Counted from the first letter of the stretch, positions 2,640-23,631 are shown. The stretch: DNA of 24,371 nucleotides from an uncultured Methanomassiliicoccales archaeon (GCA_964588745.1 CAZPQO010000001.1:1-24371); one strand, 5' to 3'. Numbers and translations: made by a program. Notes: generated from the sequence alone by a model not told the origin.

Positions 2640-2857
2640 AATTCGTATACAGACTCGACGGGCTGGGATGCGCCAACTGCGCAACCAAAATGGAAAAAAT
2701 GATTTCGAAAATCAGAGGCGTGGATTCCGCTGCCATCGTATTCATGTCACAGCGCCTGATAGTTCACTCAGACGAAGAGAACATCGGAGAAATCGACGGA
2801 GAAATCGAAAAGATCGTAAAAAAAGTATCCTGCGATGCCGTGAAAATACAGAGGTGA
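2636..2857 (+). CDS. Stand-alone heavy-metal-associated (HMA) domain protein
   Basis: GLGCANCA CxxC motif in a 73-aa ferredoxin-like-fold sequence. ATGA overlap with the repressor stop codon. Confidence 0.88.
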   Translation: MKFVYRLDGLGCANCATKMEKMISKIRGVDSAAIVFMSQRLIVHSDEENIGEIDGEIEKIVKKVSCDAVKIQR

Positions 2858-2861
2858 AGGA

Positions 2862-6356: not shown

Positions 6357-7682
6357 TCACTTGCAGGACGAAACGAATCTCCGGGCCCAATCTTTTTGGG
6401 ACAGTGCGTTCTGATGCATGTACGTTCCGACGGATGAATTGATTACCATACCGTCTTTCGAATTTATGATGCCCACTCCCCGGGACAGATCGTAACAGTA
6501 AAGAGAATCTTTTTTCGGATACACTTCCGAATAGTGATATTCATGAGCCCTCACGGGCGAATCAAACAAAGGATTGTTTTCGTTGGGTGTCGCCAGAACG
6601 TACGTGGGACCGTGGCGGTTTTCCGTCATCACGGCCTCCCCGTCGAATATCCCGGTCATTCCGTGAACCGTTCCGTCAATGTCCCTGAGACTGTCGCACA
6701 TAGTCAGCAATCCTCCGCATTCCCCGAGTATGGGTTTTCCTTCTTCGGATGCGTTCTTCATGCCTTCGGTGAAATCTTTGTTCGAAGATATTCCGTCGGC
6801 GAAGAGTTCCGGATATCCCCCGCCGAGATAGTACATATCGGCGTCGGGAAGAGAATCCCCCGCAACGGGTGAGAAATGTCTGATTTCGATGCCTGAAGCT
6901 TCCAGACATTCAAGGTTTTCTTTGTAGTAAAAACAGAAAGCGTCATCCAAAGGGACGGCGGCGGTCATCGATGCGTTTCTTTTGGTGTACGGCGACTCGG
7001 TAGGCAGATCCGCATCGGAAGATTCGGCGATGTCCATCAGAACGTTGAGATCCACACCTTCGGCGATTTCCTCGAAAGGCGAGATATCCCAACCGGAATC
7101 CGGTGTGACAAGTCCGGCCTGTCTTCTTTTCGCCGGACCGTTTGGGAGCCTGCGTATCTTACCGACAACTTTCTGTTTGCAGTAACGTTCCGTCACGGCA
7201 TCGATTTTGTCTTCATGCTGCTTTCCCGAAATGTTATTGAGAATTATGCCTTCGATTTTCACATCGGGATCGAAATCGGCGAATCCGTTGATTATCGCGG
7301 CCGCACTTTTATTGAGAGATCTTACATCCACAGTGAGAATCACGGGGAACCCCAACAGCTTGGCGAGTCCCGCGGTGGAACCGACGTCATTGTCGGCCGA
7401 AAATCCTTCGTACAATCCCCTGACGCCTTCGATGACGCACAGATCCGCCCCGCGGGAAGCATAACCCACAACGTTGCGGACGGTATCCTCGTCCATCATG
7501 AAAGAATCAAGATTTCTGCATTCTCTTCCCGATGCGATTGTATGATACATGGGATCGACGAAATCCGGTCCGGCTTTGAAAGCTTGAACTTTGTAATCTT
7601 TCGATAAACGGGAAAGTATCCCCGTGGTTATCGAAGTCTTTCCGACATTGCTGCCGGTTCCGGCTATTACGACTCCCTTCAA
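6357..7682 (-). CDS. cfbB: Ni-sirohydrochlorin a,c-diamide synthase
   Basis: CbiA/CobB family (GKTSIT, FKAGPDFVDP, IEGVRGLYEG, GGGYPE, GECGG). EGVRGLYEG is the CfbB-type variant, and the gene is last in a cfb operon. Confidence 0.9.
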   Translation of the reverse strand: MKGVVIAGTGSNVGKTSITTGILSRLSKDYKVQAFKAGPDFVDPMYHTIASGRECRNLDSFMMDEDTVRNVVGYASRGADLCVIEGVRGLYEGFSADNDVGSTAGLAKLLGFPVILTVDVRSLNKSAAAIINGFADFDPDVKIEGIILNNISGKQHEDKIDAVTERYCKQKVVGKIRRLPNGPAKRRQAGLVTPDSGWDISPFEEIAEGVDLNVLMDIAESSDADLPTESPYTKRNASMTAAVPLDDAFCFYYKENLECLEASGIEIRHFSPVAGDSLPDADMYYLGGGYPELFADGISSNKDFTEGMKNASEEGKPILGECGGLLTMCDSLRDIDGTVHGMTGIFDGEAVMTENRHGPTYVLATPNENNPLFDSPVRAHEYHYSEVYPKKDSLYCYDLSRGVGIINSKDGMVINSSVGTYMHQNALSQKDWARRFVSSCK

Positions 7683-8755
7683 CTTTCCCTCACCAGCTCT
7701 CTCAGCGTGTCTCCGGTTTCAAGAGGAATGATCGCGTCGGTGCCCATTACCAAAGAATGGGATGAAATTTCTCCGACGGAATTGGGAAATCCGGAATTGA
7801 TGTAATTGGTGAGCTGTCTCGGCTGATCCGTTATCAGAATATCAGTTTCCTTTATCCCCGGGTATGCATGACAGATTCCGGTTATGATTGTCAGATCCGG
7901 TTTGAATCCGTCCACTTCGGCCTTCAGGTCATCGCCGATAAGAGCATACTCGTCAAGACCTCCGGTTATTGCGTCGATCGTGACTTTTTCATTTTCGCAT
8001 TGGGAAAGTATATTCTCCGCATAACTTCGGATTCTCGGAAGTCCTTTGTTCACATCCAGATTGGCGACGAAGAATGTCTCACCACCGAGCTTTTTAGAAG
8101 CTTCGTCAACAGCCAGAAACATATCGGCAAAACGGTATGCCAGCTCCTTCTTGGCATTCATGACGACGGCCACCTTTCCTCCGTCGGAAAGCGTATCGCA
8201 TATTTTTTTGCATACATTGAGTTTGGTCGCTCCGACGGAGGGTTTCATGTAAGGCTTGCTTGCAAGACCTCTTTTCTTTTCCATCTCCGTGGCGGCTTTC
8301 ATCAGACCTGTCTGACGTTCGGTTTCTTCGGCGGGGATGAGTCCCGCGTCCCTTCCGGCTTCAAGAGCTTTGATTGCGCCTTCCGTATTGTTGGGCATGC
8401 AACCGTGAACTTCCACCGGGAATACCGTGCATTTCAATCCTGCGCGTTTGATTGAGGATTCCATATCTTCCCCTATAATCATGCTTGCGCAGGTTCCGAT
8501 GACGGCAACGGTGCCGGGATTGAACCTTTCATCGACTTCTTTGAGAGTTTTTACCAGTTCTTCCGAACCTCCGAATATCAAATCCGTTTCGGAAAGAGCG
8601 GTGGTGACTATTCTGACGCCGGCCTGTTCCAAAGAACGGGAGGCCATGAATCCGCAACCCGACGGACCGTGAACAACCACAACGTCCACATTCATGTCTC
8701 TCAGCGTATACATGGCGGCAACGATCGGGTTCGGGCGGGGGTGAATTATTTTCAT
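7679..8755 (-). CDS. cfbD: Ni-sirohydrochlorin a,c-diamide reductive cyclase, catalytic subunit (NifD/K-like)
   Basis: N-terminus IIHPRPNPIVAAMYTLRD..VDVVVVHGPSGC and VIGTCASMIIGED match the CfbD/NflD family. 4-nt overlaps with both neighbours. Confidence 0.93.
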   Translation of the reverse strand: MKIIHPRPNPIVAAMYTLRDMNVDVVVVHGPSGCGFMASRSLEQAGVRIVTTALSETDLIFGGSEELVKTLKEVDERFNPGTVAVIGTCASMIIGEDMESSIKRAGLKCTVFPVEVHGCMPNNTEGAIKALEAGRDAGLIPAEETERQTGLMKAATEMEKKRGLASKPYMKPSVGATKLNVCKKICDTLSDGGKVAVVMNAKKELAYRFADMFLAVDEASKKLGGETFFVANLDVNKGLPRIRSYAENILSQCENEKVTIDAITGGLDEYALIGDDLKAEVDGFKPDLTIITGICHAYPGIKETDILITDQPRQLTNYINSGFPNSVGEISSHSLVMGTDAIIPLETGDTLRELVRES

Positions 8756-9963
8756 GTGTATCCTTCCTTTACAAACAGAATCAACGGCCCTTCGGAATCC
8801 GGGATATCCGGTATTCTTCCCGAACCGTCGGTTATTATCAGTTCCACTCCGTATTCACGGGAAATTTCGATTATGTCTTCCGCATTCAGTTTACTGCAGA
8901 CTTTTCTGTTGACAGGGTCCAACACCGCGACCGCACCGTCGAGAACATTCATTTTTTTGAGAGTTTCGTATGTGCGTTCCACCGAACGTTTTGATATTCC
9001 GGGGTTCCTTTCCTTAACCACCCATCTGTTGTTTTCCCGGTACACTCCGCCCCGGCCTTCCATTCCTTTGAAGGTCGAAAGTCCTTTTTTCAGATCTTCC
9101 GTGGGGGTATCCATGATGCCGCACACGGTCACAGCCATTTCTATGGCATCAAGATATTCGAGAGCAAGATAATCGGAACTCAGGTCCGTTTCGAAACCTT
9201 CGCCGTAATCTGCGCGTATCCTGAGGGATTCGCCGAAACCGGGATTGTTGAGTACTTCGATTCTGTTTCCGTACCCTTCTGTTTTTCCTATGTTGAAAGT
9301 TTTCCAAAAATCTGTTTCGTTGAGAGGAACGACGTTCATGCCGGAAAGAATTTCTTTCTTTCCTTCGGATGCTTTTCTCGTGTCAGCGGCAATCGGATAA
9401 TCTTCCAACAGGTTGGTTATGCATGCGATATCCGCTTTACCGGAACCTCCGAGGGACACTTCGCAGATGAGGATATCATAACCTTCCTTCGGCACCGTCA
9501 GCATATGCGGCGGAGCTATGCTCACCTTTTCTTCATTTGAAAGTCTGCCGTTTTCCCAAAAACCTCTGCCTTTGGAACTGTGAAGAAGCACTTTGTTTCC
9601 TGCAACGGTAAGAATATGAGCCAGTAATCCGCAAAAACCCGTTTTTCCTTTGACGCCGGTAACTTCTATCCTGAATTTGTCGTTCTCCGTGAGTTCGCCC
9701 ACGGCTTGGCTGAAAAACTTCCTTTCGCCGTAAGTTACGCCTTCGAGGAAGCTGTCGGGACAGTGTACCGGCATCAATACAAGGTCGTATTCGCCCGGAG
9801 GCACCTCTTTGTGAACCGAGTATCCTTTATTCCTCAGTCTCAGCAATTCCTCTTCGGGCGTAACCTTGTAGACATCCACACAGGTGACGGAGTCGTCCTC
9901 ATCGGGATAAAGATCCGCGAGGACTCCTCCGCCGTGCACGGTGTCAAGGAGCAGGATTTTCAT
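8752..9963 (-). CDS. cfbE: Coenzyme F430 synthetase (Mur-ligase-like)
   Basis: LDTVHGG N-terminus, EVTGVKGKT P-loop, EVSLGG and NPG motifs. Lies between cfbA and cfbD. Confidence 0.88.
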   Translation of the reverse strand: MKILLLDTVHGGGVLADLYPDEDDSVTCVDVYKVTPEEELLRLRNKGYSVHKEVPPGEYDLVLMPVHCPDSFLEGVTYGERKFFSQAVGELTENDKFRIEVTGVKGKTGFCGLLAHILTVAGNKVLLHSSKGRGFWENGRLSNEEKVSIAPPHMLTVPKEGYDILICEVSLGGSGKADIACITNLLEDYPIAADTRKASEGKKEILSGMNVVPLNETDFWKTFNIGKTEGYGNRIEVLNNPGFGESLRIRADYGEGFETDLSSDYLALEYLDAIEMAVTVCGIMDTPTEDLKKGLSTFKGMEGRGGVYRENNRWVVKERNPGISKRSVERTYETLKKMNVLDGAVAVLDPVNRKVCSKLNAEDIIEISREYGVELIITDGSGRIPDIPDSEGPLILFVKEGYT

Positions 9964-10739
9964 ATTCCGTATTTTTCCAGCCTTTTGGCCAAAACATCCG
10001 CAAGACGGGGTTCTTTGCCTACGGGCATTGCATAGTGGATGTTGATTTCCCTGCCGAAAGCGGTGCTTATGCCTCCGTCACTGTTTGCGGGAATTCCCAG
10101 GGTTTCGGGGACTTCTTCGCCCAGATGGGCGCCGGATGCTATGAACAGGGGAAGAACGGCAACATCGGTGACATCGGTAGCGGCGATTTCCTTCATGACA
10201 TCCTCAATGAAAGGTTCGTTGAATTCATTGAATGCGTGGTAAACGTTGGAATAACCTCTCTCTTTCAACCTGTCGGCGTTGAGCTTGATTATTTCTGCGT
10301 TGTAGGACAGACGGGATCCGTGGCCGACAACCATAATCGCGGCTTTCTTTCCGTTGCAGGATTCCTTGATTCTGTCTTCGAGGATGTCCGTAAGGTTCGG
10401 ATCTTCACCGATGGGTCCTTCGAAGTGTACCGTGACTTCCTTTCCGGCGACAGTGGTTTTTCCGCCTTTGGAGTTTTCGGGTATGTTGAGCTTCTGGGGG
10501 ATGTCCCTTGTGATGTGGAGACCGGATGCAATGAAAAAGGGAATTGCGATTATCTCTTCGATTCCTTCTTTCACCATTTCTTCCAGAACGGTGTCCGCAA
10601 GAGGCATGGTTGTTTCGTTGTACGCGGTCCATACGGGAAGTCCGGTGCGCTCTTTCAATGCATTTGCCTGCTGTTCGACGGCTTCTTTGTTGTGGTTGAA
10701 CCTGGAGCCGTGTCCGATGAATAAAATTCCTCTTTTCAT
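9960..10739 (-). CDS. cfbA: Sirohydrochlorin chelatase, CfbA/CbiX family, tandem two-domain (259 aa)
   Basis: Start re-called to ATG 10739 (MKRGILFIGHGS). Two repeats of GHGSR...NE...P.F(F/I)IASG.H. The upstream part of the 323-aa ORF overlaps cfbC and looks non-coding. Confidence 0.88.
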   Translation of the reverse strand: MKRGILFIGHGSRFNHNKEAVEQQANALKERTGLPVWTAYNETTMPLADTVLEEMVKEGIEEIIAIPFFIASGLHITRDIPQKLNIPENSKGGKTTVAGKEVTVHFEGPIGEDPNLTDILEDRIKESCNGKKAAIMVVGHGSRLSYNAEIIKLNADRLKERGYSNVYHAFNEFNEPFIEDVMKEIAATDVTDVAVLPLFIASGAHLGEEVPETLGIPANSDGGISTAFGREINIHYAMPVGKEPRLADVLAKRLEKYGI

Positions 10740-10753
10740 GTTATCTTCTCTGT

Positions 10754-11530
10754 TTACTTCATTAATCGCATTCCGCCTTCGGAATCTTCCGAACGTCGAA
10801 TCATTTCCTCTGCGAGTGATTTGAAATTCTCTGCCATCACGGAGTCGGGAGCGTGCCTTACCACCGTGGTTCCGGCCGCTTCCGCGTCCTGAACCGCTTG
10901 GTCTCTGGGCAACCGGTAAACAACATCGCAACCCATTTCCCTCGCGGCATCGTCAACGATTCTGTTTTCATCGTCAATGCCTCTGGAATTCTGGATTATG
11001 CCTCCGAACACCGCATAACCGTCCCCGGCAAAGCCGTCCACGGCCTGACGGATGTTGTCCGCGGCGTACAGCGACATCATCTCTCCCGATGTGACCACAA
11101 AAACTTCTTTGGCGTATCCGTTGCGGATAGGCATTGCAAACCCTCCGCATACGACGTCACCCAAGACATCATAGATTATCACATCGGGTTTGACAATGTC
11201 GATTGCCCCCAAGTCTTCCAGTTGATCGAAGGCCGCGATAATTCCGCGGCCGGCGCAACCCGTGCCCGGTTTAGGACCTCCGCATTCGACACAGAACACA
11301 TTGTGTCCCGTATCATGAATAACGTCGTCCAAAGACACGTTGCCTTCCTTCATTCTGTCAAGAACTGTATCGGGTGCTTTGCCGCCCATCAAAAGTTTGG
11401 TGGAGTCGGCTTTGGGGTCGCATCCGATCTGAAGAACCCGGAAGCCCATATCGGCCAATGCATCGCTTATGTTCGAAGAGACGGTGGATTTACCTATTCC
11501 GCCCTTCCCGTAAATGGCAATTCTTCTCAA
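10754..11530 (-). CDS. cfbC: Ni-sirohydrochlorin a,c-diamide reductive cyclase, ATP-dependent reductase subunit (NifH-like)
   Basis: [34 protein letters not shown] and [14 protein letters not shown]. Start re-called to TTG 11530 with GGTGA RBS. Heads the cfb operon, and no nifDK lies nearby. Confidence 0.9.
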
Positions 11531-11584
11531 TAATTCACCAATAGAGTCATACTTAATAATACTTTCAACTTCGTTCGTGCTAAA

Positions 11585-11600
11585 TGGATGGTACATCCAA
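11585..11600. promoter_or_regulatory. Putative operator dyad upstream of the cfb operon (TGGATG-GTA-CATCCA)
   Basis: Perfect 6-3-6 inverted repeat. 14 of 16 bases are identical to the dyad at 16556-16571. It lies 55 nt upstream of the cfbC start. Confidence 0.65.
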
Positions 11601-11638
11601 TGCACTGCGCACTACTCCGATTGATTAAAAGATTGTGT

Positions 11639-12361
11639 TCAAAGGTCCAATATTCTGTATAATTCGGCCCTTTCGGATTTGGAAATATTGCGGTATTTGC
11701 CGACTCCCATGTCTCCGAGTTCAAGATTGAGGACTCTGACCCTCTTGATCGTCAGCGCGGTGTAATCCAATTCCCCGCACATTCTTCTGATTTGACGGTT
11801 GATGCCCTGTTTGAGAATGATTCTGAATTCACGGTCACCGGTCTGTATGATTTCGCATTTCCTTGTGACGACCGAACCGCCCATAATCGGAACTCCCCTT
11901 GACATTTCTTTGATGAATTTTTCCGTGATATCGCGGTCGACGGTGACAATGTATTCTTTGTCGTGGCCGTTGCTTGAATGCATTATTTTTTCCGCGAGGA
12001 AACCGTTGTTGGTCATCAGCAACAGACCTTCGGACTCTTTGTCCAAACGTCCGACGGAATAAATCCTCTTTGAGAATCCGATATAATCGATTACGTTATC
12101 GGGATCTTCGGGGTTGGACGTGCAGGTTATTCCCCTGGGTTTGTAAAACAAAAGAACAATGTCTTCCTCTTCGGGAGATACGACGTTTCCGTCCACACGG
12201 ACAACGTTTCCGGAAAATACTTTGTCGCCCAAAACGGCTTTCATTCCGTCAATGGTTACTCTGCCTTCCTCTATGATTTTGTCTGCGCCGCGTCTTGAAG
12301 AGACGCCGGAATCGCCGAGATATTTGTTAAGTCTGACGCCTTTGTTTTCGGAAGGTACCAT
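11639..12361 (-). CDS. rluF: RsuA/RluF-family rRNA pseudouridine synthase
   Basis: S4 domain (RLNKYLGDSGVSSRRGADKIIEEGRVTIDG), KPRGITCT, GRLDKESEGLLLMTN (catalytic Asp), KEYIV and QGINRQIRRMC. Subfamily assignment is by recalled similarity only. Confidence 0.85.
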   Translation of the reverse strand: MVPSENKGVRLNKYLGDSGVSSRRGADKIIEEGRVTIDGMKAVLGDKVFSGNVVRVDGNVVSPEEEDIVLLFYKPRGITCTSNPEDPDNVIDYIGFSKRIYSVGRLDKESEGLLLMTNNGFLAEKIMHSSNGHDKEYIVTVDRDITEKFIKEMSRGVPIMGGSVVTRKCEIIQTGDREFRIILKQGINRQIRRMCGELDYTALTIKRVRVLNLELGDMGVGKYRNISKSERAELYRILDL

Positions 12362-12380
12362 GAGCGTTCATTAAAGGTAT

Positions 12381-12390
12381 ATTATATAAT
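12381..12390. promoter_or_regulatory. Palindromic TATA-like element shared by the divergent rluF and pirin genes
   Basis: ATTATATAAT is a perfect palindrome within the short divergent gap, about 25 nt from the rluF ATG. Confidence 0.5.
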
Positions 12391-12438
12391 GATGTGCAAC
12401 AGGAGAGGTATTTTAATCAAACCGCATATCCTGCCGAT

Positions 12439-13524
12439 ATGTGGCCGTTCAGTAAAAGGGCTAAAGGCGCCGTTCTGAAATATGTGGACTTCGACATTCA
12501 CTGGGATACCGAAGACCCTTTCATTTTCGTATCCCATCACAGGGACAACTACCCTAAAGGGAATTCTCAGCAGGCCCCTCCTTACGATATGATTGCCTGG
12601 AGGGATTTGGGCCACGATTACAAAAAACACAACGGATTCCGGATGTACAAAGGGAAAGTCGTTCCGGGTTTCCCGATGCATGCCCATTGGGGGTATGAAA
12701 CCTTCACTCTCGCCGAAGAAGGATATGTGGATACTTTCGATTCCGAAGGCAATCAGTCACGGTTCGGCTTCGGAGATGCCCAGTGGGTCACGGCTTCAAG
12801 CAAATACCAACACAACGAGATGTATCCATTGGTGTTTCAGGACCGCCCGAACCCCAACAACATTACCCAGATTATGATTAACCTTCCACTGGAAATGAAG
12901 GGGTCTTTAAATAGGGTCCATATGCTCTGGTCGGATAGTATAAAAACAAGAAGATTTACCGACGGTTCCGGAAAGAATACCGAGGTCATCCTGTATGCGG
13001 GAACGTATGAGAATATGACCGTAGAGGTACCTAATCCGGATTCCTGGACGGCGGATCCCGGGAACGGGGTCAAGATCCTTCAGATAAAAATGGAAGAGGG
13101 CGCGGAATACGTTCTGAAAGCAGATTCGCCTGAGATAAATCGAAATCTGTATTTCGTTTCCGGAAGCCATGCGGATGTCAACGGTTTCGCCGCGGATGCG
13201 GGATACAGAATGAAACTCACATCCGATGCCGACGTTATAATCAGAAACGGAGATGTTCCGTCTAAGTTCTGGCTGTTGGACGGCAAGCCGATAAAACAAA
13301 AGATGTCTTCTTTCGGCCCCGTGGTTCTTGAAAATGACAAAGCCGTCAGAGCCGCAATGAACAACATCAGAGAACAAGAGTTTGAAATCTGGCCCTGGAA
13401 CGTTATCGACAAGGTGCAGGCGATTGAAGCACCGAGATTCATAAGATACGCCGACGGAAGGGAAGAATATCCGGACGGAAAGCCCGAGGGGTTCGAACCC
13501 GCCGAATTGAGACGGAATGAATGA
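12439..13524 (+). CDS. Pirin-family bicupin protein (long form)
   Basis: DPFIFVSHH, GFPMHAHWGYETFT, FGDAQWVTA, QHNEMYP and NLP, plus a C-terminal pirin-C region (GKPIKQKMSSFGPVVL). ATG 12439 is chosen because GTG 12394 sits just after the TATA-like box; the start is uncertain. Confidence 0.85.
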   Translation: MWPFSKRAKGAVLKYVDFDIHWDTEDPFIFVSHHRDNYPKGNSQQAPPYDMIAWRDLGHDYKKHNGFRMYKGKVVPGFPMHAHWGYETFTLAEEGYVDTFDSEGNQSRFGFGDAQWVTASSKYQHNEMYPLVFQDRPNPNNITQIMINLPLEMKGSLNRVHMLWSDSIKTRRFTDGSGKNTEVILYAGTYENMTVEVPNPDSWTADPGNGVKILQIKMEEGAEYVLKADSPEINRNLYFVSGSHADVNGFAADAGYRMKLTSDADVIIRNGDVPSKFWLLDGKPIKQKMSSFGPVVLENDKAVRAAMNNIREQEFEIWPWNVIDKVQAIEAPRFIRYADGREEYPDGKPEGFEPAELRRNE

Positions 13525-13627
13525 GTCTTCGATTACCGTCTGTTTTTGCGATGTTGCCGTGATTTGTCTGATAAATTTTATCAATGACTGTTCGGACCGC
13601 AACCACAGGGTGTAAAAATAATCTGAT

Positions 13628-13648
13628 TCCGTGCCCTTGGGACACGGA
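13628..13648 (-). terminator. Hairpin just downstream of cbiC, possible terminator of cbiLFHC
   Basis: On the minus strand, TCCGTGTCC-CAA-GGGCACGGA forms a 9-bp stem with one G-U pair. It is flanked by T5 tracts and lies 15 nt after the cbiC stop. Confidence 0.5.
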
Positions 13649-13663
13649 TTCGGATAAAAAGGT

Positions 13664-14293
13664 TCAGAATTCGTCTTTGTTGTAAATCATCGCGTTGCAG
13701 ATTGCGGCGGCAATGTTCGATCCGCCCTTTCTGCCTTTGGCGACGATGTACGGAACATCGGAATCCATAATCTGTTCTTTCGATTCGATTACGTTGACGA
13801 ATCCGACGGGAACGCCGATTATCAATGCCGGTTCGAGTTTGCCTTCATCGATGAGTTCCTTCAGCCTTATCAGCGCAGTGGGAGCGTTTCCTATGGCAAA
13901 GATATTCCTGCCTTTCAACGCCGCGCCCCGTTCCATTGAAACCTTTGCGCGGGTGCAGCCTCTGGCTTTGGCTTCTTCGATTACGGATTCGTCGCCGATG
14001 AAACAATGAGCTTCTCCTCCGAAAGAGGCAAGACGGTCTTTGTTCACACCGGAATAGGCCATTCTTGTGTCAGTTATGATGTTTGCGCCGGAACGTATCG
14101 CCTCAATTCCGATTCGCACGGCATCTTCGGAGAATTCCAGATTGTCCGCGTAATCGAAATCCGCTGAAGTGTGAATACATCTTTTGATTACGGAAAACTC
14201 GGGTTCCGGCCATTTCCTTCCACCCAGTTCGCTTTCTATGATCTCCATGCTGCGTTTTTCGATATCTGCAGGTTTCACATTGAGAATTTTCAT
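13664..14293 (-). CDS. cbiC: Cobalt-precorrin-8 methylmutase
   Basis: IEKRSMEII, RCIHTSADF, IGNAPTAL, IGVPVGFVNV and GRKGGSNIAAAICNA. Confidence 0.95.
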   Translation of the reverse strand: MKILNVKPADIEKRSMEIIESELGGRKWPEPEFSVIKRCIHTSADFDYADNLEFSEDAVRIGIEAIRSGANIITDTRMAYSGVNKDRLASFGGEAHCFIGDESVIEEAKARGCTRAKVSMERGAALKGRNIFAIGNAPTALIRLKELIDEGKLEPALIIGVPVGFVNVIESKEQIMDSDVPYIVAKGRKGGSNIAAAICNAMIYNKDEF

Positions 14294-15030
14294 TGTTCGA
14301 CCTCATATCCTCTGGGCGTGATCATTTTCCCATTCGAAACATAGGTCTGAGAATTGCCTACGATTACAATGGAGAACATATCCACATCGTCGTAAGGAAT
14401 GTTGCCCAGCGTTGCAAGGATTGTGCTTTCTTCCTCTCTCCGTGCGTTTCTCACAATACCCACCGGAGTTTCGGAGGATCTGTATTTGAGCAGAATCTCC
14501 ACGGCCTCGGGAAGATGCTGAACTCTTTTCTTGCTTTTGGGATTGTAAAGACAGACAATCATATCTCCGACGCCGGCGCTGTCGATGCGTTTCATTATCA
14601 GATCATAAGGAGTCATCAAATCGGAAAGACTGATGATTGCCAGATCGTGCATCAGAGGCGCCCCGAGTATGGATGCCGCCGCGGAAGCCGCGGTGACTCC
14701 GGGAACCACGTCCACTTCTATGTCCGCATTCATTTCGTCAACGAGTTGGTATATGATTCCCGCCATTCCGTAAATTCCGGAATCTCCGCTGCTGACCATC
14801 GCCACGTTCAATCCGGTGGATGCGTCCTCTATTGCCGAACGGCATCTTTCCACTTCTCTCATCATACCTGTGGCTTTGTATTCTTTCTCGGGAAAGTATT
14901 CTTTCAGAATATCCACGTAGGTTGTGTAACCTGTAACGATGTCCGCGGCTTCGATTGCGTTCACGGCTCTCAGAGTCATGTCTTCTTTGGAACCGGGGCC
15001 GAATCCGACCACGGTAAGTTTGCCGGACAT
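14290..15030 (-). CDS. cbiH: Cobalt-factor III C17-methyltransferase
   Basis: VVGFGPGS..DMT, GYTTY, GMMREVERC, SSGDSGIYGMAG, HDLAIISLSDLMTP and LYNPKSKKR. Confidence 0.94.
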   Translation of the reverse strand: MSGKLTVVGFGPGSKEDMTLRAVNAIEAADIVTGYTTYVDILKEYFPEKEYKATGMMREVERCRSAIEDASTGLNVAMVSSGDSGIYGMAGIIYQLVDEMNADIEVDVVPGVTAASAAASILGAPLMHDLAIISLSDLMTPYDLIMKRIDSAGVGDMIVCLYNPKSKKRVQHLPEAVEILLKYRSSETPVGIVRNARREEESTILATLGNIPYDDVDMFSIVIVGNSQTYVSNGKMITPRGYEVEQ

Positions 15031-15789
15031 TCACTCCACCGTCCCTTTGCGGTATTCGGTTGTGAATGCTTTGTCATAAAGTTTGGATAAGCTGTACTCG
15101 TCTCCGAGGAAATCACCGACAACCGTCAGTGCAGTCTTGGTTATCCCTGCTTCCTTCACTTTGGAAGATATGTTCTTCAGAGTGCCCGTGACAATCTCCT
15201 GTTCGGGCCAACTTGCCTTGTAAACGACTGCGACGGGAGTGTTTTCTTCGTATCCTCCTTCGATCAGCTGTTCGGTCAGTTCGTCCATGAATCCCACACT
15301 GAGGAAAATAACCATGGTCGCATGGTGGGATGCCAGTTCCGCAATGCTTTCCCCTTCGGGCATGGGTGTCCTTCCTTCCATTCTTGTGAATATGACGGTT
15401 TGACTGACATCGGGAAGGGTGTATTCCTTCTTCAGTGCAGCGGCAGTCGCAAAGGCGGAACTTACTCCGGGGATGACTTTGCTTTCAATCCCCATTTCGT
15501 CCAATCTGTCGATCTGTTCCCTTATGGCACCGTAAATGGACGGGTCCCCGGTGTGAACGCGTGCGGTGTTCAGTCCCTCGGACTCGGCGTTCTTCATAAC
15601 TTCAAGAACTTCGTCCAGATTCATTTCCGCACTGTTATAGATCTTTGCGGTCTTTTTGGCGTCGCTTAATACAGCAGGATTCACCAACGAACCGGCGTAA
15701 ATTATCACTTCCGCCGAATCTATCGCTCTTTTTCCTTTGATTGTCAATAATTCCGGATCTCCCGGGCCGGCGCCGACGAATGTTATCAT
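15031..15789 (-). CDS. cbiF: Cobalt-precorrin-4 C11-methyltransferase
   Basis: FVGAGPGDPELLT, YAGSLVN, RVHTGDPSIYGAIREQ and LPDVSQTVIFTR. Confidence 0.95.
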   Translation of the reverse strand: MITFVGAGPGDPELLTIKGKRAIDSAEVIIYAGSLVNPAVLSDAKKTAKIYNSAEMNLDEVLEVMKNAESEGLNTARVHTGDPSIYGAIREQIDRLDEMGIESKVIPGVSSAFATAAALKKEYTLPDVSQTVIFTRMEGRTPMPEGESIAELASHHATMVIFLSVGFMDELTEQLIEGGYEENTPVAVVYKASWPEQEIVTGTLKNISSKVKEAGITKTALTVVGDFLGDEYSLSKLYDKAFTTEYRKGTVE

Positions 15790-16502
15790 TTTGAATCCTC
15801 GCTTTTATTTTTCTTCACTATGACTGTGGTGAAATATCCGTATTCGCGGTCAACATCGATGGGTCCGATGTATTCTCCGTCCATGCCGATGTTGCTGATG
15901 ACGGTCCCGTTCTCCAAAGGTATTCCGTTCTTTTTCATCATGTCCGCGAGAACCTGCATGGAATCCCAGGCCTTCATCACGACAAGATTGTCGGAAGAAG
16001 CCAGAAAGGAATCCAATCTGCCGTTGTTCTTCTTGGCCATGGGAATCACGGTAAGGTCTTCGTCACCTATCATCAAGGGTATTCTCGCTTCGGCGGCACC
16101 GCCGCAGAAGGATGTGATTCCGGGAATTACTTCTGTCTCGTATCCCAGATTTCTGATCTCCTCGTCAACGTACATGTAAGTGCTGTAAACTCCCACATCC
16201 CCGAGGGAAACCATTGCCACGTCGGAACCGGAATCCAAAACTTCCGTCAGTTCTTTGATGGCTTCGGATCTGCAGGCTTCCCTGACTTTATCGTCGGGAT
16301 TCATGCTGAACAGAAGTTCCAGAATTTTCTTTCCGGACAGGTCGGTTGCTTTCCCTGCTATGTCCAAAGCCGTACTGTCCTCTCCCCGTTTGTGAACAGG
16401 GTAAGCGATCACCGCGGATCGATCAATCAATTCTTTGGCTTTGATTGTGAGAAGTCCCGGGTCTCCGGGGCCCACACTTACGCCATATAATTTTCCTGCC
16501 AT
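15786..16502 (-). CDS. cbiL: Cobalt-precorrin-2 (factor II) C20-methyltransferase
   Basis: LYGVSVGPGDPGLLTIKA, SLGDVGVYSTY, IPGITSF, VVMKA and YFTTVIV. AGGTGA RBS. Confidence 0.92.
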   Translation of the reverse strand: MAGKLYGVSVGPGDPGLLTIKAKELIDRSAVIAYPVHKRGEDSTALDIAGKATDLSGKKILELLFSMNPDDKVREACRSEAIKELTEVLDSGSDVAMVSLGDVGVYSTYMYVDEEIRNLGYETEVIPGITSFCGGAAEARIPLMIGDEDLTVIPMAKKNNGRLDSFLASSDNLVVMKAWDSMQVLADMMKKNGIPLENGTVISNIGMDGEYIGPIDVDREYGYFTTVIVKKNKSEDSK

Positions 16503-16552
16503 CGGATTTCACCTAATCTTATGATTCACCGTACATGCTATACGTTTATTTA

Positions 16553-16573
16553 AGTTGGATAGTATATCCAACT
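16553..16573. promoter_or_regulatory. Putative operator dyad in the cbiL/cbiD divergent region (AGTTGGATA-GTA-TATCCAACT)
   Basis: Perfect 9-3-9 inverted repeat abutting the TATA-like TTTATTTAA (16545-16553). Its core matches the cfb dyad and lies 54 nt upstream of the cbiL start. Confidence 0.7.
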
Positions 16574-16655
16574 GTAATTATCCGATAAGTGTTATAGCAT
16601 GGATAATTCCTCCAATTTAAGGGCTGAGTCAATGTCCGGAACCGAAAAAGACGAG

Positions 16656-17783
16656 ATGTCCGTCAACCAGGGCGGAAAGATACTGAAAAGGGGTCATACT
16701 ACGGGAACGTGTGCGGCGGCGGGATCCAAAGCCGCCGCAATCATGTTGCTGACGGGCAACCCTGTCAACAGTATTGACATTTTGACGCCAAAAGGAATTC
16801 TTCTCGATCTTAAAATCGAAGACATAGATTTACAAAAAGACAGAGTCAGATGCGCCGTAAGGAAAGACGGAGGCGACGACATCGACGTGACACACGGTTC
16901 CCTTGTTTATTCCGAAGTGATTCTTTCCGACGAAGGCACTGAAATCGACGGCGGAATCGGCGTCGGAAGAATAACGAAAAAGGGATTGGATCAACCCGTC
17001 GGAAACGCCGCAATCAACAGAATTCCCAGAAACATGATTGTTGAAGCTTTGGAAGATGTCAGGGACAATCTGAATTACGATAAGGGATTCAATGTAACGA
17101 TATCGATTCCCGACGGCACCGAACTTGCGGAAAAAACTTTCAATCCCCGTTTGGGAATAATCGGGGGAATCTCCGTTCTGGGAACTTCCGGAATTGTCGA
17201 ACCCATGAGCGAAAAGGCAATCATTGACACCATAAAAGCGGAAATGAAAGTCAGAAAGGAGGAAGGTACGGAGACTTTGCTTGTGGTACCGGGAAATTAC
17301 GGCGCAAGCTACGTGGAAGCCATTGACGGTCTCGATCCGGAATCCGCCGTAAGGTGCAGCAACTACATCGGGGAGACTTTGGATTATGCCGCCGAACTCG
17401 GTTTCAAAAATTTATTGCTCATAGGCAATCTCGGCAAACTGGTGAAACTTGCGGGAGGCATCATGAATACGCATTCGAGAGAATCCGATTCGCGCATGGA
17501 AATCCTCGCGGGGAATGCAGCCGTTGCCGGGGCTTCCGTCGACATACTGAAGAAAATCATGGATTCTGTTTCCACGGATGATGCGCTGTATCACATCAAC
17601 GAAGCAAACCTTCTCGACTATGTCATGACCCTCATATCCGAAAAGGCTGAATATCACATGAACCGAAGAACCGAAAATAAAGTGAAATGCGGCACGATGA
17701 TTTTCTCCTCCGAATACGGATTGATCGGGCGTTCACCTTCGTCAAAAGATTCGCTCAAAGAACTGGGAGGTTCGGTACTTTGA
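16656..17783 (+). CDS. cbiD: Cobalt-precorrin-5B C1-methyltransferase
   Basis: LKRGHTTGTCAAA, KDGGDDIDVTHG, TFNPRLGIIGGISVLGTSGIVEPMS and KLVKLAGGIMNTHS. The start could instead be ATG 16632 or 16599. Confidence 0.94.
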   Translation: MSVNQGGKILKRGHTTGTCAAAGSKAAAIMLLTGNPVNSIDILTPKGILLDLKIEDIDLQKDRVRCAVRKDGGDDIDVTHGSLVYSEVILSDEGTEIDGGIGVGRITKKGLDQPVGNAAINRIPRNMIVEALEDVRDNLNYDKGFNVTISIPDGTELAEKTFNPRLGIIGGISVLGTSGIVEPMSEKAIIDTIKAEMKVRKEEGTETLLVVPGNYGASYVEAIDGLDPESAVRCSNYIGETLDYAAELGFKNLLLIGNLGKLVKLAGGIMNTHSRESDSRMEILAGNAAVAGASVDILKKIMDSVSTDDALYHINEANLLDYVMTLISEKAEYHMNRRTENKVKCGTMIFSSEYGLIGRSPSSKDSLKELGGSVL

Positions 17784-18811
17784 TTCATATCGTTGCCTTT
17801 TCCTCCAAAGGTTGCGAATTGGCTTTGAAAATATCCGAAGGATTGGATACGGAGAACAAAGTCTTCTCAAAAACTTCCGGCAATTCTGAAGGTACGGTAC
17901 ACATCGACGTGCCCATATCCCATTGGGCCGGGGAATCTTTCAAAGAAACGGAGGGAATCGTATTCGTCGGGGCTACTGGAATTGCGGTCAGAGCAATCGC
18001 ACCCCATGTGAAAAACAAAGCAAAAGATCCGGCAATCGTATGCATCGACGAGCTCGGAAAATATTGCATTTCTCTGCTTTCCGGGCATCTCGGAGGCGCT
18101 AACGATCTCACACTCAAAATATCGGAAATCACAGGCGCGGAACCTGTGATATCCACCGCAACAGACCTTAACAAAAAATTCTCCGTGGATGTGTTCGCAT
18201 CGTCGAGAAACATGGCCATCGGCAGCATGAATCTCGCCAAAGAAATTTCCGCCGCCGTTCTTGAAAATAAAAACATCGGATTCAAAAGCGATTATCCCTA
18301 CTCGGGAAATCTTCCGGAGAACTTTACCGAATCTGAAAAGAATTTGGGAATCCACGTCACGTCTTCGAACAAATCGATTTTCAAAAAAACACTGAGGCTG
18401 ATTCCTAAAAATCTTATTTTGGGTATCGGTTGTAGAAGAGACACTCCCGAAGACACTGTCAACAGGGTCGTCCGCAAAGTTCTGTCCGACAATGATATTT
18501 CGATCGAAGGCGTAAGACTTATAGCCAGCATAGATTTGAAAAGCGATGAGAAAGGCCTGCTTGAGTTTTCTGAAAAACTCGGCGTGCCCTCGGTTTTTTA
18601 CACAGCGGAAGAGCTTAACACTCTCCGGGGAGACTTCAGCAAATCCGATTTCGTTTTGAAAACAATCGGCGTCGATTGCGTCAGTGAAAGAGCCGCTATG
18701 TTCCCCTCAGCCGAAGGGAAAGTGATTGTTCCGAAAACCGGACTTGACGGCGTAACCGTTGCCGTGGTCAAAGAACCATTTGAATTTAATTTTGGAGTTG
18801 AACCTACTTGA
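17780..18811 (+). CDS. cbiG: Cobalt-precorrin-5A hydrolase
   Basis: Start re-called to TTG 17780 (GGGAGG RBS, overlaps the cbiD stop). FVGATGIAVRAIAP, KAKDPA, LLSGHLGGAN, VISTATD and LGIGCRR. Confidence 0.93.
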   Translation: MIHIVAFSSKGCELALKISEGLDTENKVFSKTSGNSEGTVHIDVPISHWAGESFKETEGIVFVGATGIAVRAIAPHVKNKAKDPAIVCIDELGKYCISLLSGHLGGANDLTLKISEITGAEPVISTATDLNKKFSVDVFASSRNMAIGSMNLAKEISAAVLENKNIGFKSDYPYSGNLPENFTESEKNLGIHVTSSNKSIFKKTLRLIPKNLILGIGCRRDTPEDTVNRVVRKVLSDNDISIEGVRLIASIDLKSDEKGLLEFSEKLGVPSVFYTAEELNTLRGDFSKSDFVLKTIGVDCVSERAAMFPSAEGKVIVPKTGLDGVTVAVVKEPFEFNFGVEPT

Positions 18812-20784
18812 AGAAAAAAGCGCTGATATTCGCGGGCACCACCGAAGGAAGGGAACTGACGGATTTCCTCAGTAAAAACAAGATTGACGTCACGGTGAGC
18901 ACCGCAACCGAATACGGTGAATCCGTTATAGAAATAAACGATCACACAGAAACTGACAGCATACGCGGCGTGGACAACATGGCCGAAAGAATGAAAGAAT
19001 TCGATATTGTGATTGATGCCACCCATCCCTACGCCATAAGAAAATCGGAGCACATCAGGGAAGCTTCAAAAATCAACGGTACTCCGCTAATCAGGATAAT
19101 CCGTCCCGACAGCGACGGAATCGGAAATCCGATAACTTTTCCCGACATACCTTCCGCCGTGAATTACCTCTCGGGAACCGAAGGGAACATATTCGTCACC
19201 ACCGGAAGCAACGAACTGTCCGAGTTCACATCCATTCCCGGCTACAAAGAAAGAGTGTACGCCCGGGTTCTCTCGCTGTCTTCGGTTGCCGAGAAGTGTT
19301 CTGCTCTGGGATTCGAAGGCAGAAATCTGATGTGCATGGAAGGTCCTTACAGCGAAGAACTGAATCTCGCAATGATGAAACATGTTGACGCGAAATACAT
19401 GGTGACAAAGGATTCGGGTTCGGTCGGCGGTTTCGAAGACAAGATGTCTGCCGCCGCAAAAGCCGGCGTCATCCCGATTGTGATCGGCCGTCCCGCGGAA
19501 CATGACGGAATTCCGATGGAAGAAGCGATAAAGGAACTGTCCGAACTGTTCTCAATAGATTTGCCGTCAAAGAAAAGAAAAATTACCATTGCGGGAATCG
19601 GAACAGGAAACGATGCGGGTCTGACATTGGCCGTTATAAACAGTGTTAAAAATTCGAATTTGGTCATCGGCGCGAAAAGAATGCTGGAATGTTTTGATCT
19701 GACGGGAAAAGAAGTTCTCGAAGAATACCGTTCGAAAGAGATTCTGGAATATGTGGAAAATAACCGACAATTCGGCAATATAACGGTACTGATGTCCGGA
19801 GACACGGGATACTACAGCGGCACCAAGAAACTGTTGATTGCTTTCGAAAATGAAGATTATGACATAACCGTGTTGCCGGGAATCTCTTCGATATCATACT
19901 TTTTCTCAAAGTTGGGAGAATCCTGGGATGACGTGCACCTGACCAGCCTTCACGGCAGGGAAGAGAACATCGTGGGTCTCGTGAAACGTCACAAAAGACT
20001 GTTCACGCTCCTGAACGGAGAGGAATCCACACATGAAATGTGCAGAGAACTCATCGAATACAATCTTGAAGACGTGGAAATAGCCATCGGTCAGGATTTC
20101 GGTTCATCGGAAGAAAGAATCGACAAAGGCTCTCCGGAAGAAATATTGAAAATGCCTCTCGGAAAACTTTGCGTCGCGTTCATCAAAAATCCCGATGCGT
20201 CGAACGTAATCCCACTGGGTATTTCCGATGAGGATTTCATACGCGGAACGGCACCTATGACAAAAAGCGAAGTCCGCTCTCTGTCCGTGGTAAAATTAAA
20301 ACTGAACGAGGATTCCGTAATCTACGACGTGGGGGCCGGAACCGGATCCGTTTCCGTGGAAATGGCTTCCGTCGCCCTTTCGGGTCATGTTTATGCCGTT
20401 GAGAAAAACAAAGATGCCGTTTCTCTGATTTCAGAGAATTGTAAAAAATTCGGAACTCCCAACATTGCCGTGGTGGAAGGGTTCGCCCCTGATGCTTTGG
20501 CCGAACTTCCGATGCCCACTCACGCATTCATAGGAGGATCTTCCGGAAATCTGGAATCCATAATCGATGTGCTTCTTGAAAAGAATCCTGACGTCAGAAT
20601 CGTAATCACGTCCGTAACATTGGAAACTCTGTCCGAAACCATGCGTTGCGTCAATGAACTGAACATAACCGAAGAAGAAACGATATGCATGAATATATCA
20701 AGAGCCAGACTTCTGGGCGACTATCATTTGATGACTGCGCAGAACCCCGTTTATATAACGGTCTGCAGAGGCGGTAAGGAATGA
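18808..20784 (+). CDS. cbiJ-cbiE-cbiT: Trifunctional fusion: cobalt-precorrin-6A reductase (CbiJ) + C5-methyltransferase (CbiE) + C15-methyltransferase/decarboxylase (CbiT)
   Basis: aa 1-250: FAGTTEGR, DATHPYA, TKDSGSVGG (CbiJ). aa ~255-465: IAGIGTG, SGDTGYYSG, LPGISS (CbiE). aa ~472-658: PMTKSEVR, YDVGAGTGSVSVE, FIGGSSG (CbiT). One uninterrupted frame. Confidence 0.92.
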   Translation: MKKKALIFAGTTEGRELTDFLSKNKIDVTVSTATEYGESVIEINDHTETDSIRGVDNMAERMKEFDIVIDATHPYAIRKSEHIREASKINGTPLIRIIRPDSDGIGNPITFPDIPSAVNYLSGTEGNIFVTTGSNELSEFTSIPGYKERVYARVLSLSSVAEKCSALGFEGRNLMCMEGPYSEELNLAMMKHVDAKYMVTKDSGSVGGFEDKMSAAAKAGVIPIVIGRPAEHDGIPMEEAIKELSELFSIDLPSKKRKITIAGIGTGNDAGLTLAVINSVKNSNLVIGAKRMLECFDLTGKEVLEEYRSKEILEYVENNRQFGNITVLMSGDTGYYSGTKKLLIAFENEDYDITVLPGISSISYFFSKLGESWDDVHLTSLHGREENIVGLVKRHKRLFTLLNGEESTHEMCRELIEYNLEDVEIAIGQDFGSSEERIDKGSPEEILKMPLGKLCVAFIKNPDASNVIPLGISDEDFIRGTAPMTKSEVRSLSVVKLKLNEDSVIYDVGAGTGSVSVEMASVALSGHVYAVEKNKDAVSLISENCKKFGTPNIAVVEGFAPDALAELPMPTHAFIGGSSGNLESIIDVLLEKNPDVRIVITSVTLETLSETMRCVNELNITEEETICMNISRARLLGDYHLMTAQNPVYITVCRGGKE

Positions 20785-22136: not shown

Positions 22137-22889
22137 TGCAATGTCTTTCAGCATTCCGGTGAATGTGAATTCGGTTGCGATTATGTCGGGTTCTCTTCCG
22201 AATTCCCGCAGCTCATAAGCAGTGGGAGTTCCGATTGCGGCGACCTTTACTGAATCCATGAGTGCTGTCGTTCGGTCACCGAACTTTTCCTTCATCTGAG
22301 CGTAAAAAATCCTTGATGATTTCGGACTTGTGAAAGCCATAACGTCCAAATCTCCGTTTTCGACAGAATCCATTATTTCCGTCAGCTCGGGAGTGATTCC
22401 GAACTCTTCCAATCTGTATGTGGCTATTGTGACAACCTTTGCTCCAGCTTCGGAAAGTCCTTCGTCAAGAACTTCGGTTCCGCTGTCGGATCTTATCAAA
22501 AGCACGGTCTTTCCGTTGACTCTTCCTTTCAGCATGTCCACTATGCCGTATGACGAGTACTCGGAAGGCATCATGTCGGATTTCACACCGGCATCGATCA
22601 ACGCTTTCTCGGTGGCGGGTCCGATGGATACCACATTTATATTTTCAAAAAGAACCGGGAATTCGTCTCCGAATTCGCCGATGCACTTTTCCACCGCGGT
22701 AATCGAACCGAAAACCGCAAAGGAAGCTTTGCCGGAGGTCAGGCAATCCCTTATTTTTTGGAATTCTTCCCTGTCCCCCGTAATTATTTTCATGGATGGG
22801 GCACCCAAAACCCGAAAACCCATTTCTTCCGCTTCGCGAACGGCGTTCCTGAGTCTTTCTTCGGGTCTTGTGAACCCCAATCCGATCAT
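22098..22889 (-). CDS. hemD: Uroporphyrinogen-III synthase
   Basis: FTRPEER, FGSITAV, SIGPATEKAL, LLIRSDSG, TYRL, FTSPKS and AIGTPTA. Directly downstream of cobA. Confidence 0.9.
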   Translation of the reverse strand: MIGLGFTRPEERLRNAVREAEEMGFRVLGAPSMKIITGDREEFQKIRDCLTSGKASFAVFGSITAVEKCIGEFGDEFPVLFENINVVSIGPATEKALIDAGVKSDMMPSEYSSYGIVDMLKGRVNGKTVLLIRSDSGTEVLDEGLSEAGAKVVTIATYRLEEFGITPELTEIMDSVENGDLDVMAFTSPKSSRIFYAQMKEKFGDRTTALMDSVKVAAIGTPTAYELREFGREPDIIATEFTFTGMLKDIASFFGMPVAGDKE

Positions 22890-23629: not shown

Positions 23630-23631
23630 TT

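Follow-up and report, generated by a model that had tools for sequence, protein, structure and literature searches.

Here, we describe a palindromic promoter element in a stretch of 24,371 nucleotides from an uncultured Methanomassiliicoccales archaeon (GCA_964588745.1 CAZPQO010000001.1:1-24371; the whole stretch is referred to as the window, and its positions are counted from the first letter). The element, which has the consensus TTGGAT-N5-ATCCAA and is called the dyad below, lies upstream of the cfb operon for biosynthesis of coenzyme F430, the cofactor of the methane-forming enzyme methyl-coenzyme M reductase (MCR), and in the gap between two divergent cbi operons for anaerobic synthesis of the corrin ring of vitamin B12. 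On comparative evidence the dyad is a conserved cis-element, with chance excluded as its origin, and its copies are quite probably functional operators of a single factor. It is predicted to be a typical palindromic operator with a new sequence, serving a previously undescribed regulon in which, in one clade, B12 genes are united with F430 genes.

Three copies had been reported in a preliminary description of the window, namely TGGATGGTACATCCAA (11585-11600), TGGATAGTATATCCAA (16556-16571), and TGGATAATTCCTCCAA (16600-16615), and all three were found at these coordinates. When one base is added, the second copy becomes a perfect 7-3-7 palindrome, TTGGATA-GTA-TATCCAA (16555-16571). Exactly two matches to TGGAT-N5-ATCCA occur in the 24,371 nt, as had been noticed by eye, where 0.06 are expected, and none of 100 dinucleotide shuffles gave two. 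With one mismatch allowed, the window contains seven matches, including the copy at 16600, vs 1.47 expected. A position weight matrix (PWM), which was symmetrised and built from 15 sites of relatives only, placed the three dyads at the top three positions of the window with scores of 24.1, 21.2, and 17.1, followed by a fourth position at 12.6. For the maxima of 300 shuffled windows under the same PWM, the 95th percentile was 15.5 and the top score was 19.9.

The architecture of the element was derived from 35 dyad sites. Positions G3, G4, T13, C14, C15, and A16 are invariant (35/35), T2 and A12 are kept in 33 and 32 sites, respectively, and positions 7-11 vary within a total length that is constant at 17. 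The half-site centres are 11 bp apart, or one helical turn, as expected for a dimeric helix-turn-helix (HTH) or winged-helix protein. Conserved arms with a spacer of fixed length, placement at promoters, and enrichment with coherent targets, all of which were found for the dyad, are the generic features of palindromic operators.

The closest genomes to the window are metagenome-assembled genomes (MAGs) of the Methanomethylophilaceae, with CfbC identities of 92% and 88% for L001 and L002 (related loci are given L numbers), and archaeal promoter logic, i.e., a transcription factor B (TFB) recognition element (BRE) and a TATA box, is therefore applicable. Genes were mapped by NCBIfam and Pfam scans of the window, plus gene calls on identical or syntenic contigs, and the NCBIfam matches confirmed the cfb and cbi identities that had been assigned previously. 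The F430 operon, cfbC-cfbA(double CbiX)-cfbE-cfbD-cfbB, occupies 6357-11530 on the minus strand (NCBIfam matches and gene calls in syntenic loci). Its dyad (11584-11600) reads TTGGATGTACCATCCAT toward cfbC and, at a PWM score of 21.2, lies above all 300 shuffled-window maxima. The distances to the downstream start codons also hold, with coordinate differences of 55 to the cfbC TTG (11530) and 54 to the cbiL ATG (16502), and so do the boxes that follow the two stronger dyads, TTAGCACGA (11575-11583) and CTTAAATAAA (16545-16554).

Phylogenetic footprinting at cfbC was carried out with the nine genomes that share the rluF-cfbC synteny (the window, L001, L002, L121, L123, L124, L126, L128, and L127), which span CfbC identities from 100% to 71%. 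The dyad was found at the same place in 9/9: TTGGATGTACCATCCAT in the window, TTGGACACATCATCCAT in L001, TTGGACCAATCATCCAT in L002, TTGGATGAAACATCCAT in L121, ATGGATGAATCATCCAT in both L123 and L124, ATGGATTACACATCCAT in L126, ATGGATTATATATCCAT in L128, and TGGGATGTAACGTCCAA in L127. In the alignment of these nine genomes (A1), no substitution is seen in the arm cores GGA and TCCA, whereas the five bases at the centre differ and the sequence upstream of the dyad is unalignable. Directly abutting the dyad, with zero spacing, is the conserved box TTAGCACGA (11575-11583, minus strand), which belongs to a TTA(G/A)CACGA block with the invariant columns T-TA-CACGA; the TTTAGC that had been pointed out after the cfbC dyad is part of this separate box. 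Further downstream, TGAAAGTATTATTAA (11553-11567, minus strand), the predicted BRE and TATA box of cfbC, is almost wholly invariant in the nine genomes, and an AT-rich block at a matching distance from the cfbC start was found order-wide. The dyad stands at constant spacing from these promoter blocks in all nine genomes, and its centre, at roughly -62, precedes that of the BRE/TATA-like block by ~35 bp. Because the centre of TGAAAGTATTATTAA lies ~27 nt before the TTG/GTG start of cfbC, its position implies that the cfbC mRNA would be leaderless or near-leaderless. The rluF gene is co-directional with cfbC and ends 38 nt ahead of the dyad.

Some gene calls (e.g., P0004 and P0010) start cfbC at a minus-strand ATG inside the dyad (11594-11596), giving a protein of 280 aa. 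These calls are most likely wrong, since the upstream stretch has in-frame stops in the cfbC frame in four of the nine genomes (L002, L123, L124, and L127), and a start at TTG 11530 yields a canonical NifH-type N-terminus. Coding constraint from an N-terminally extended CfbC was rejected as the cause of the conservation on account of the same in-frame stops.

The second promoter region lies between the cbiL-cbiF-cbiH-cbiC operon for anaerobic corrin ring synthesis (13664-16502, minus strand; NCBIfam) and the cbiD-cbiG-cbiJ/E/T fusion-cbiA operon (16632-22136, plus strand; NCBIfam and gene calls of the identical contig L038). It contains the strongest dyad, the perfect 7-3-7 palindrome TTGGATAGTATATCCAA (16555-16571), which has the maximum PWM score of the window (24.1). 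On the minus strand, this dyad abuts CTTAAATAAA (16545-16554), the predicted TATA box of the cbiL-F-H-C operon, and thus covers the BRE position; a Shine-Dalgarno motif, AGGTGAAA (16507-16514), and the cbiL ATG (16502) follow. Binding over the BRE next to the TATA box, as had been proposed for both operons, fits cbiL but not cfbC, where the invariant TGAAAGTATTATTAA block is 16 nt further downstream. Footprinting at cbiL revealed that the fusion of dyad and TATA box persists in at least 10 genomes, at CbiL identities from 90% down to 56% (L001/L043, L044, L045, L046/L047, L048, L121, L123, L124, L126, and L127). In these relatives, the dyad always runs straight into the TATA-like box, for example as ...TCCAA-CTTAAATA or ...TCCAT-TATTATAG, and the stretch between that box and the Shine-Dalgarno motif diverges.

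On the opposite side of the gap, a weak degenerate dyad, ATGGATAATTCCTCCAA (16599-16615; PWM 17.1, third in the window), faces cbiD and comes directly after a TATA-like sequence, TTATAGCA (16592-16599). The layout at cbiD consists of the TATA box (TTATAAT or TTATAGCA), the dyad, ~16 nt, and the ATG (16632 in the window), which would place the dyad between the predicted TATA box and the predicted transcription start. The cbiD-side site is strong in L045, L047, L123, L124, L126, and L127 and weak in the window and L001. What had been recorded as a degenerate third copy is accordingly best described as a decaying homologue of a real operator, of which six relatives have strong versions in an identical layout.

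The element is enriched well beyond the window. In the first 214 kb of related loci, TGGA-N7-TCCA gave 20 matches vs ~3.2 expected, and in 397 kb of non-redundant Methanomassiliicoccales loci, 46 matches with a PWM score of at least 14 were found vs ~2.5 expected (~0.15 per 24 kb). Of these 46, 22 lie wholly within the 6.5% of sequence that is outside long stop-free stretches. The other 24 are in the run-up to start codons according to gene calls, with two exceptions; since the coding/non-coding classifier is crude and overcounts "coding", as stop-free frames extend upstream of true starts, placement was judged site by site against gene calls. By comparison, 859 kb of loci from outside the Methanomassiliicoccales, which are mostly bacterial, gave five PWM matches, none of which reached 17.

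The genes downstream of these sites are coherent. At cbiMNQO(O), the TATA box is bracketed by two dyads in L047 and L126 and followed by one in L127. In L004, which is Ca. Methanarcanum hacksteinii, a btuF-FecCD-ABC-chlI-chlD/vWA-cobN operon begins with a btuF-like gene, a dyad is located 9 nt ahead of that gene, and a second dyad lies 105 bp off in the gap common to btuF and cfbC. Dyads stand on either side of the TATA box of a membrane-anchored protein gene that adjoins a BtuD-like ATPase gene in L048, and one precedes cbiC, itself directly ahead of cfbC, in L003. L129, a metagenome scaffold whose CbiL is identical to that of the isolate ISO4-H5, and L130, from a Methanomethylophilus species, have dyads ahead of a 491-aa/FecCD/FecCD/ABC/CobN operon, cbiL, a 944-aa/ABC/FecCD operon, cobN, and another FecCD gene. 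The predicted core of the regulon is thus cobalt- and corrinoid-related, being composed of cbi genes, cbiMNQO, btuFCD/FecCD-type transporters, and cobN. The earlier proposal of a joint Ni/Co-tetrapyrrole regulon stands insofar as one operator is common to the cfb promoter and the cbi divergon, but the core is cobalt/corrinoid and the F430 operon belongs only in the window's syntenic clade.

Two side observations concern individual loci. L003 (CAVJRF010000001.1) is labelled "Eggerthellaceae bacterium", yet its genes include one for an archaeal-type L15e ribosomal protein, a complete cfb operon (66% identity to that of the window), and a nikR with 78% identity to the Methanarcanum gene; very likely, the contig is archaeal and was mis-binned. 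In L009 (15419-15433), a Methanogranum MAG without the TTGGAT dyad, a perfect palindrome, CGGAC-ATAAA-GTCCG, is found ~15 nt before cbiF and may represent the operator in a lineage-specific form. The general motif CGGA-N7-TCCG, considered as a variant for dyad-less lineages, gave 19 matches vs ~6 expected, nearly all in coding sequence.

The cfb promoter itself contains a second kind of element. Upstream of cfb clusters across the Methanomassiliicoccales, (T)(A/G)GTAACAC(G) is present once or as up to three direct copies with a period of ~30 nt (L006 2981-3048; L008 9083-9121; L119 2150-2187; L005 9954; L009 9951; L010 9949; L011 5156), and L007 and L027 carry it as well. These boxes take the same relative position at cfb promoters, ~12 nt before the AT-rich TATA-like block. 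The degenerate TTAGCACGA of the window (11575-11583) and TTAACACGA of L127 are local forms of this (G)TAACAC(G) box, and a second factor, specific to cfb, probably binds at TTAGCACGA. As the GTAACAC-type box is order-wide and membership of the F430 operon in the dyad regulon is limited to one clade, the cfb promoter is therefore predicted to own a separate element, directly upstream of which the dyad was added in the window's clade.

Several points weigh against reading the dyads as operators of one factor for both pathways. The training sites of the PWM were gathered with a pattern taken from the window's own sites, and the high scores in the window are thus partly circular. The matches at L129 15320 and L130 1970 lie just inside annotated coding starts. 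No dyad was detected within 200 nt of cfbC in L005, L007-L011, or L027 (best PWM score <12), which are other Methanomassiliicoccales with 60-73% CfbC identity; in L006, the dyad is not at cfbC but ahead of a regulator-like gene that lies shortly upstream of the cfb genes. At cbiD, the window has a weak site, and L044 and L121 have lost theirs. The cfbC site appears to lie upstream of the core promoter, where simple repression is not predicted. Finally, all promoter elements, TATA boxes, and transcription starts were assigned from sequence. The support that is free of circularity, namely orthologous placement, enrichment, and coherent targets, nonetheless points to a real element.

Based on these data, our working model is that a dimeric, probably HTH-type factor of the Methanomethylophilaceae, encoded elsewhere in the genome, would bind the dyads; we infer its binding, the sign of regulation, and the effector. 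The core of its regulon would comprise cbiLFHC, cbiDGJETA, the CbiMNQO metal transporter, BtuFCD/FecCD-type ABC importers, and genes for CobN-type chelatases, and the F430 operon cfbCAEDB would have joined in the window's clade. At B12/cobalt promoters, the sites are of two kinds: that of cbiL adjoins the TATA box from the BRE side, and those of cbiD, cbiM, and btuF-like genes are downstream of the TATA box but ahead of the start codon. Some pairs bracket the TATA box. Archaeal regulators that bind over or downstream of the BRE/TATA region repress by blocking either the binding of TATA-binding protein (TBP) and TFB or the recruitment of polymerase, and upstream sites can activate, a position rule that is documented for the Thermococcales glycolytic motif (TGM) with TrmBL1 and Tgr, as well as for MDR1, Phr, Ptr2, and TFB-RF1 (PMC4158304). 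Because of the dyad positions and this rule, repression of the B12/cobalt genes would be predicted, through blocked TBP/TFB binding or RNA polymerase recruitment. The likely signal would be corrinoid or cobalt sufficiency, by analogy with the gene content of the bacterial B12-riboswitch regulon. At cfbC, no nucleotide separates the dyad from the second box, which suggests interplay with the cfb-specific factor, and the dyad-binding factor would more likely modulate that factor (anti-activation or co-activation) than occlude the core promoter.

One possible reason for the link to the cfb operon is that the cbi operons of this clade lack a cobaltochelatase. Neither cbiX nor cbiK is present in the cbi operons of the window (13664-22136), and the sole class II chelatase encoded in the window is that of the double-CbiX cfbA gene (9960-10931). 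Class II chelatases are loosely metal-specific (PMC7689651). The double-CbiX CfbA may serve both metals, or a CobN-type enzyme encoded elsewhere may carry out the cobalt step.

Among the alternatives, the most probable is that the factor acts reciprocally, repressing B12/cobalt genes and activating the F430 operon, and so divides sirohydrochlorin between the two cofactors, which would give a mechanism to the partition suggested in the preliminary description. Both pathways fork at sirohydrochlorin (PMC7689651), the cbiD, cbiM, and btuF sites are downstream of the TATA box, and the cfbC dyad, ~35 bp upstream of its BRE/TATA-like block, falls into the activation class of positions known for TGM/Tgr/TrmBL1, Ptr2, and TFB-RF1 (PMC4158304). 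Position alone is no clean separator of the two classes, however, as the cbiL dyad is likewise upstream of its TATA box, and the contact of the cfbC dyad with another conserved box makes steric competition, i.e., anti-activation, equally plausible. Most of the order, moreover, has no dyad at cfbC. We consider this reciprocal arrangement possible but doubtful.

A little less probable again is that the dyad is purely a B12/cobalt operator and that F430 is no target. The copy at cfbC would then serve another purpose; it might, for example, block read-through from the co-directional rluF, which ends 38 nt before it, or regulate the operon for a cobalt role of the double CbiX, which is the sole class II chelatase of the window and belongs to a class of loose metal specificity (PMC7689651). 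The composition of the core regulon outside the window's clade, which is cbi, cbiM, btu, and cobN only, is consistent with this explanation. Against this, the spacing of the dyad from the cfbC promoter blocks is constant in nine genomes, which suggests that the dyad functions at this promoter, and control of cfbC transcription amounts to control of the entire cfbCAEDB operon.

It is very unlikely that the dyads are operators of NikR, the nickel-responsive ribbon-helix-helix (RHH) repressor. F430 is a nickel cofactor, and a nikR homologue (RHH and NikR_C domains, 143 aa) is the next gene downstream of cfbB in L004 (15268-15699, minus strand) and L003 (9948-10379, minus strand), with another homologue in L010 (417-842, minus strand); no nikR is found in the 24-kb window or the syntenic loci. 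Known and predicted NikR half-sites are 13-16 nt, or about two helical turns, apart, as in GTGTTAC-N13/14-GTAACAC of delta-proteobacteria and GTATGAT-N13/14-ATCATAC of enterobacteria (PMC545781), whereas the dyad has a 5-nt spacer, half-sites that are one turn apart, and an unrelated sequence, and the majority of its targets are cobalt/B12 genes. The GTAACAC-type boxes at cfb promoters come far closer, since the NikR half-site predicted in delta-proteobacteria is the 7-mer GTAACAC (PMC545781), and they are better NikR-like candidates than the dyad, judging from this resemblance. We rejected the boxes as inverted NikR sites of the known form, as they have no inverted partner at N13/14 and are instead direct repeats with a period of ~30 nt or inverted repeats with an N24 spacer; at the cfb promoter of L003, GTAATAC-N24-GTATTAC takes the place of the GTAACAC box. 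The NikR of L004 and L003 is a candidate nickel-responsive regulator of the F430 operon, and the second box touched by the cfbC dyad is possibly NikR-type.

The dyad could also be thought to act as RNA, in the form of a small hairpin, a terminator, or a riboswitch-like element. The best copies could fold into a 7-bp stem with a 3-nt loop, and the copy at cfbC is downstream of the rluF stop codon. The two differences between the first two window copies, G-C in one and A-T in the other, had been regarded as compensatory. Of the 35 sites, 12 show symmetry between positions 7 and 11, vs 12.7 expected from column frequencies, and eight show it between positions 8 and 10, vs 11.5 expected; position 7 prefers a purine and position 11 a pyrimidine. 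The apparent compensation is a coincidence between two sites, and because pairing covariation is absent, an RNA hairpin is disfavored. Archaeal termination uses T-runs and is not known to depend on hairpins. No Rfam family, including cobalamin riboswitches (RF00174), reached its gathering score anywhere in the window, in agreement with the earlier statement that the gap at the cbi operons is too short for a riboswitch; the gaps are 97-130 nt long. To our knowledge, archaea do not have the B12 riboswitches used by bacteria. With arm sequence conserved in place of pairing ability, and with several copies upstream of their own TATA box and hence untranscribed from that promoter, a function as RNA is the least credible of the explanations considered.

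Returning to the model of one DNA-binding factor, we found no plausible candidate for it among the genes of the window, in line with the expectation that it is encoded elsewhere. The ArsR gene (2268-2639, plus strand) was rejected as the source of the dyad-binding protein; it forms a metal-efflux unit with an HMA-domain protein (2596-2865, plus strand) and a P-type ATPase (2862-4733, plus strand), and its start is overlapped by an unrelated, near-perfect 18/18-nt palindrome, AATTGAACAGTCATTCAA/TTGAATAGGTGTTCAATT (2234-2269), which is probably the ArsR operator. No match to the dyad PWM occurs at the ArsR promoter. The pirin-like gene was also rejected as a regulator, as its product is a plain bicupin with an HxH...E motif and without a DNA-binding domain.

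A lead, but not a conclusion, as to the cognate factor comes from L006, where a 280-aa regulator-like protein (1164-2026) with a HATPase_c_4 domain and a C-terminal winged-helix-like region is encoded at the head of a gene-DUF1638-cbiX-cfbC cluster, with the dyad TTGGACTATACATCCAA 3 nt before its ATG. The orthologue in L119 (298-1161, 73% identical) has ACGGACCATGCATCCGT at the same spot, of the form ACGGAC-N5-ATCCGT, in which both outer arms have changed symmetrically, and the homologue in L008 (8073-8996) has a different palindrome there, TCTAAC-TTT-GTTAGA. The family is tiny, with three relatives found, and is absent from all other loci except L008. No TrmB-like gene was present in any locus examined, a search that covered loci and not whole genomes.

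Several known systems resemble the predicted regulon in part. The TGM, TATCAC-N5-GTGATA, which is bound by the TrmB-family proteins TrmBL1 and Tgr (PMC4158304), is likewise an archaeal 6-N5-6 inverted repeat that serves a coherent regulon of multiple operons from both sides of the BRE/TATA region (PMC4158304). It differs in its half-site, TATCAC vs TTGGAT, and in governing sugar metabolism vs cofactor and metal genes. TrmB of Halobacterium salinarum (VNG1451C) also binds a palindromic site, has a regulon that includes cobalamin biosynthesis, and activates or represses by position (PMC4158304), but its motif is TACT-N7-8-GAGTA and it is a global sugar-responsive regulator, with no regulon dedicated to cofactors, in a different archaeal class. 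The NikR operators share with the dyad that they are inverted repeats related to a metal cofactor at Ni/Co transporter promoters (PMC545781), and nikR adjoins the cfb operon in L004 and L003; unlike the dyad, they have half-sites about two helical turns apart and an unrelated sequence. In gene content, there is a parallel with the bacterial cobalamin riboswitch regulon, which covers cbi/cob biosynthesis, CbiMNQO, and BtuFCD-type import and thereby provides feedback control over the supply of B12 (PMC8123684, PMC2667541). That regulon is controlled by structured 5' leader RNA, none of which was detected by Rfam in the window, whereas the dyad is a DNA palindrome in archaeal promoters, and, unlike the riboswitch regulon, the dyad regulon includes the F430 operon, which bacteria lack.

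An earlier precedent in concept is the "CBL-box", which Rodionov et al. 2003 (J Biol Chem) reportedly predicted for a hypothetical archaeal B12 regulator, with no link to F430. Like the dyad, it is a DNA signal from comparative genomics at archaeal B12 genes that replaces the riboswitch; the likeness is one of concept and carries no claim of identity with the dyad. Genomes of the Methanomassiliicoccales did not exist in 2003. Literature text searches returned no described regulator of F430 biosynthesis and no protein-based B12 feedback regulator in methanogens.

The remaining genes of the window are an MFS transporter (3-1037, plus strand), a Sel1-repeat protein (1222-2181, minus strand), and an Hsp70-like protein (4814-6352, plus strand) ahead of the cfb operon; an RluF-type pseudouridine synthase (11639-12361, minus strand) and a pirin-like protein (12439-13524, plus strand) between the cfb and cbi operons; and hemD, cobA, and hemC (22098-24357, minus strand). 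The bacterial-type RluF and the pirin-like bicupin (~360 aa) are divergent (11639-13524) and stand between the cbi and cfb operons in every syntenic genome. The Hsp70/MreB-like gene is non-canonical (512 aa), and its position adjoining cfbB is a conserved arrangement. In L127 (13770-19379) and L128 (5521-11115), it is followed by a DO-GTPase2-domain gene and a gene for a ~1000-aa protein, with a GrpE-like gene in between in L127. As a separate observation on CfbC, NifH-like proteins 50-59% identical to that of the window are encoded in many genomes of Clostridia, Spirochaetales, Flexilinea, and Bryobacterales (L012-L026, L031, L033, and L037).

The Methanomethylophilaceae are methylotrophic methanogens of human and ruminant guts, and they depend entirely on corrinoid methyltransferases and on the F430-containing MCR. 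A 17-bp operator with ~35 instances provides a handle for the capture of its regulator by DNA-affinity purification, allows the cofactor and metal regulon to be predicted in any genome of the family, and corrects cfbC starts that some gene callers place inside the dyad. It also gives a testable hypothesis in which the supply of cobalt, nickel, and corrinoid is coupled to methane formation. Tentatively, a single sensor protein may use one operator in two ways to coordinate corrinoid and F430, repressing cobalt uptake and corrin synthesis from sites over the core promoter and acting positively, or as an anti-activator, at the F430 operon from an upstream site, which would set the split of sirohydrochlorin between cobalt and nickel insertion. 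If this is true, no regulator of F430 biosynthesis, and in methanogens no protein-based feedback regulator of B12, would have been described before this protein.

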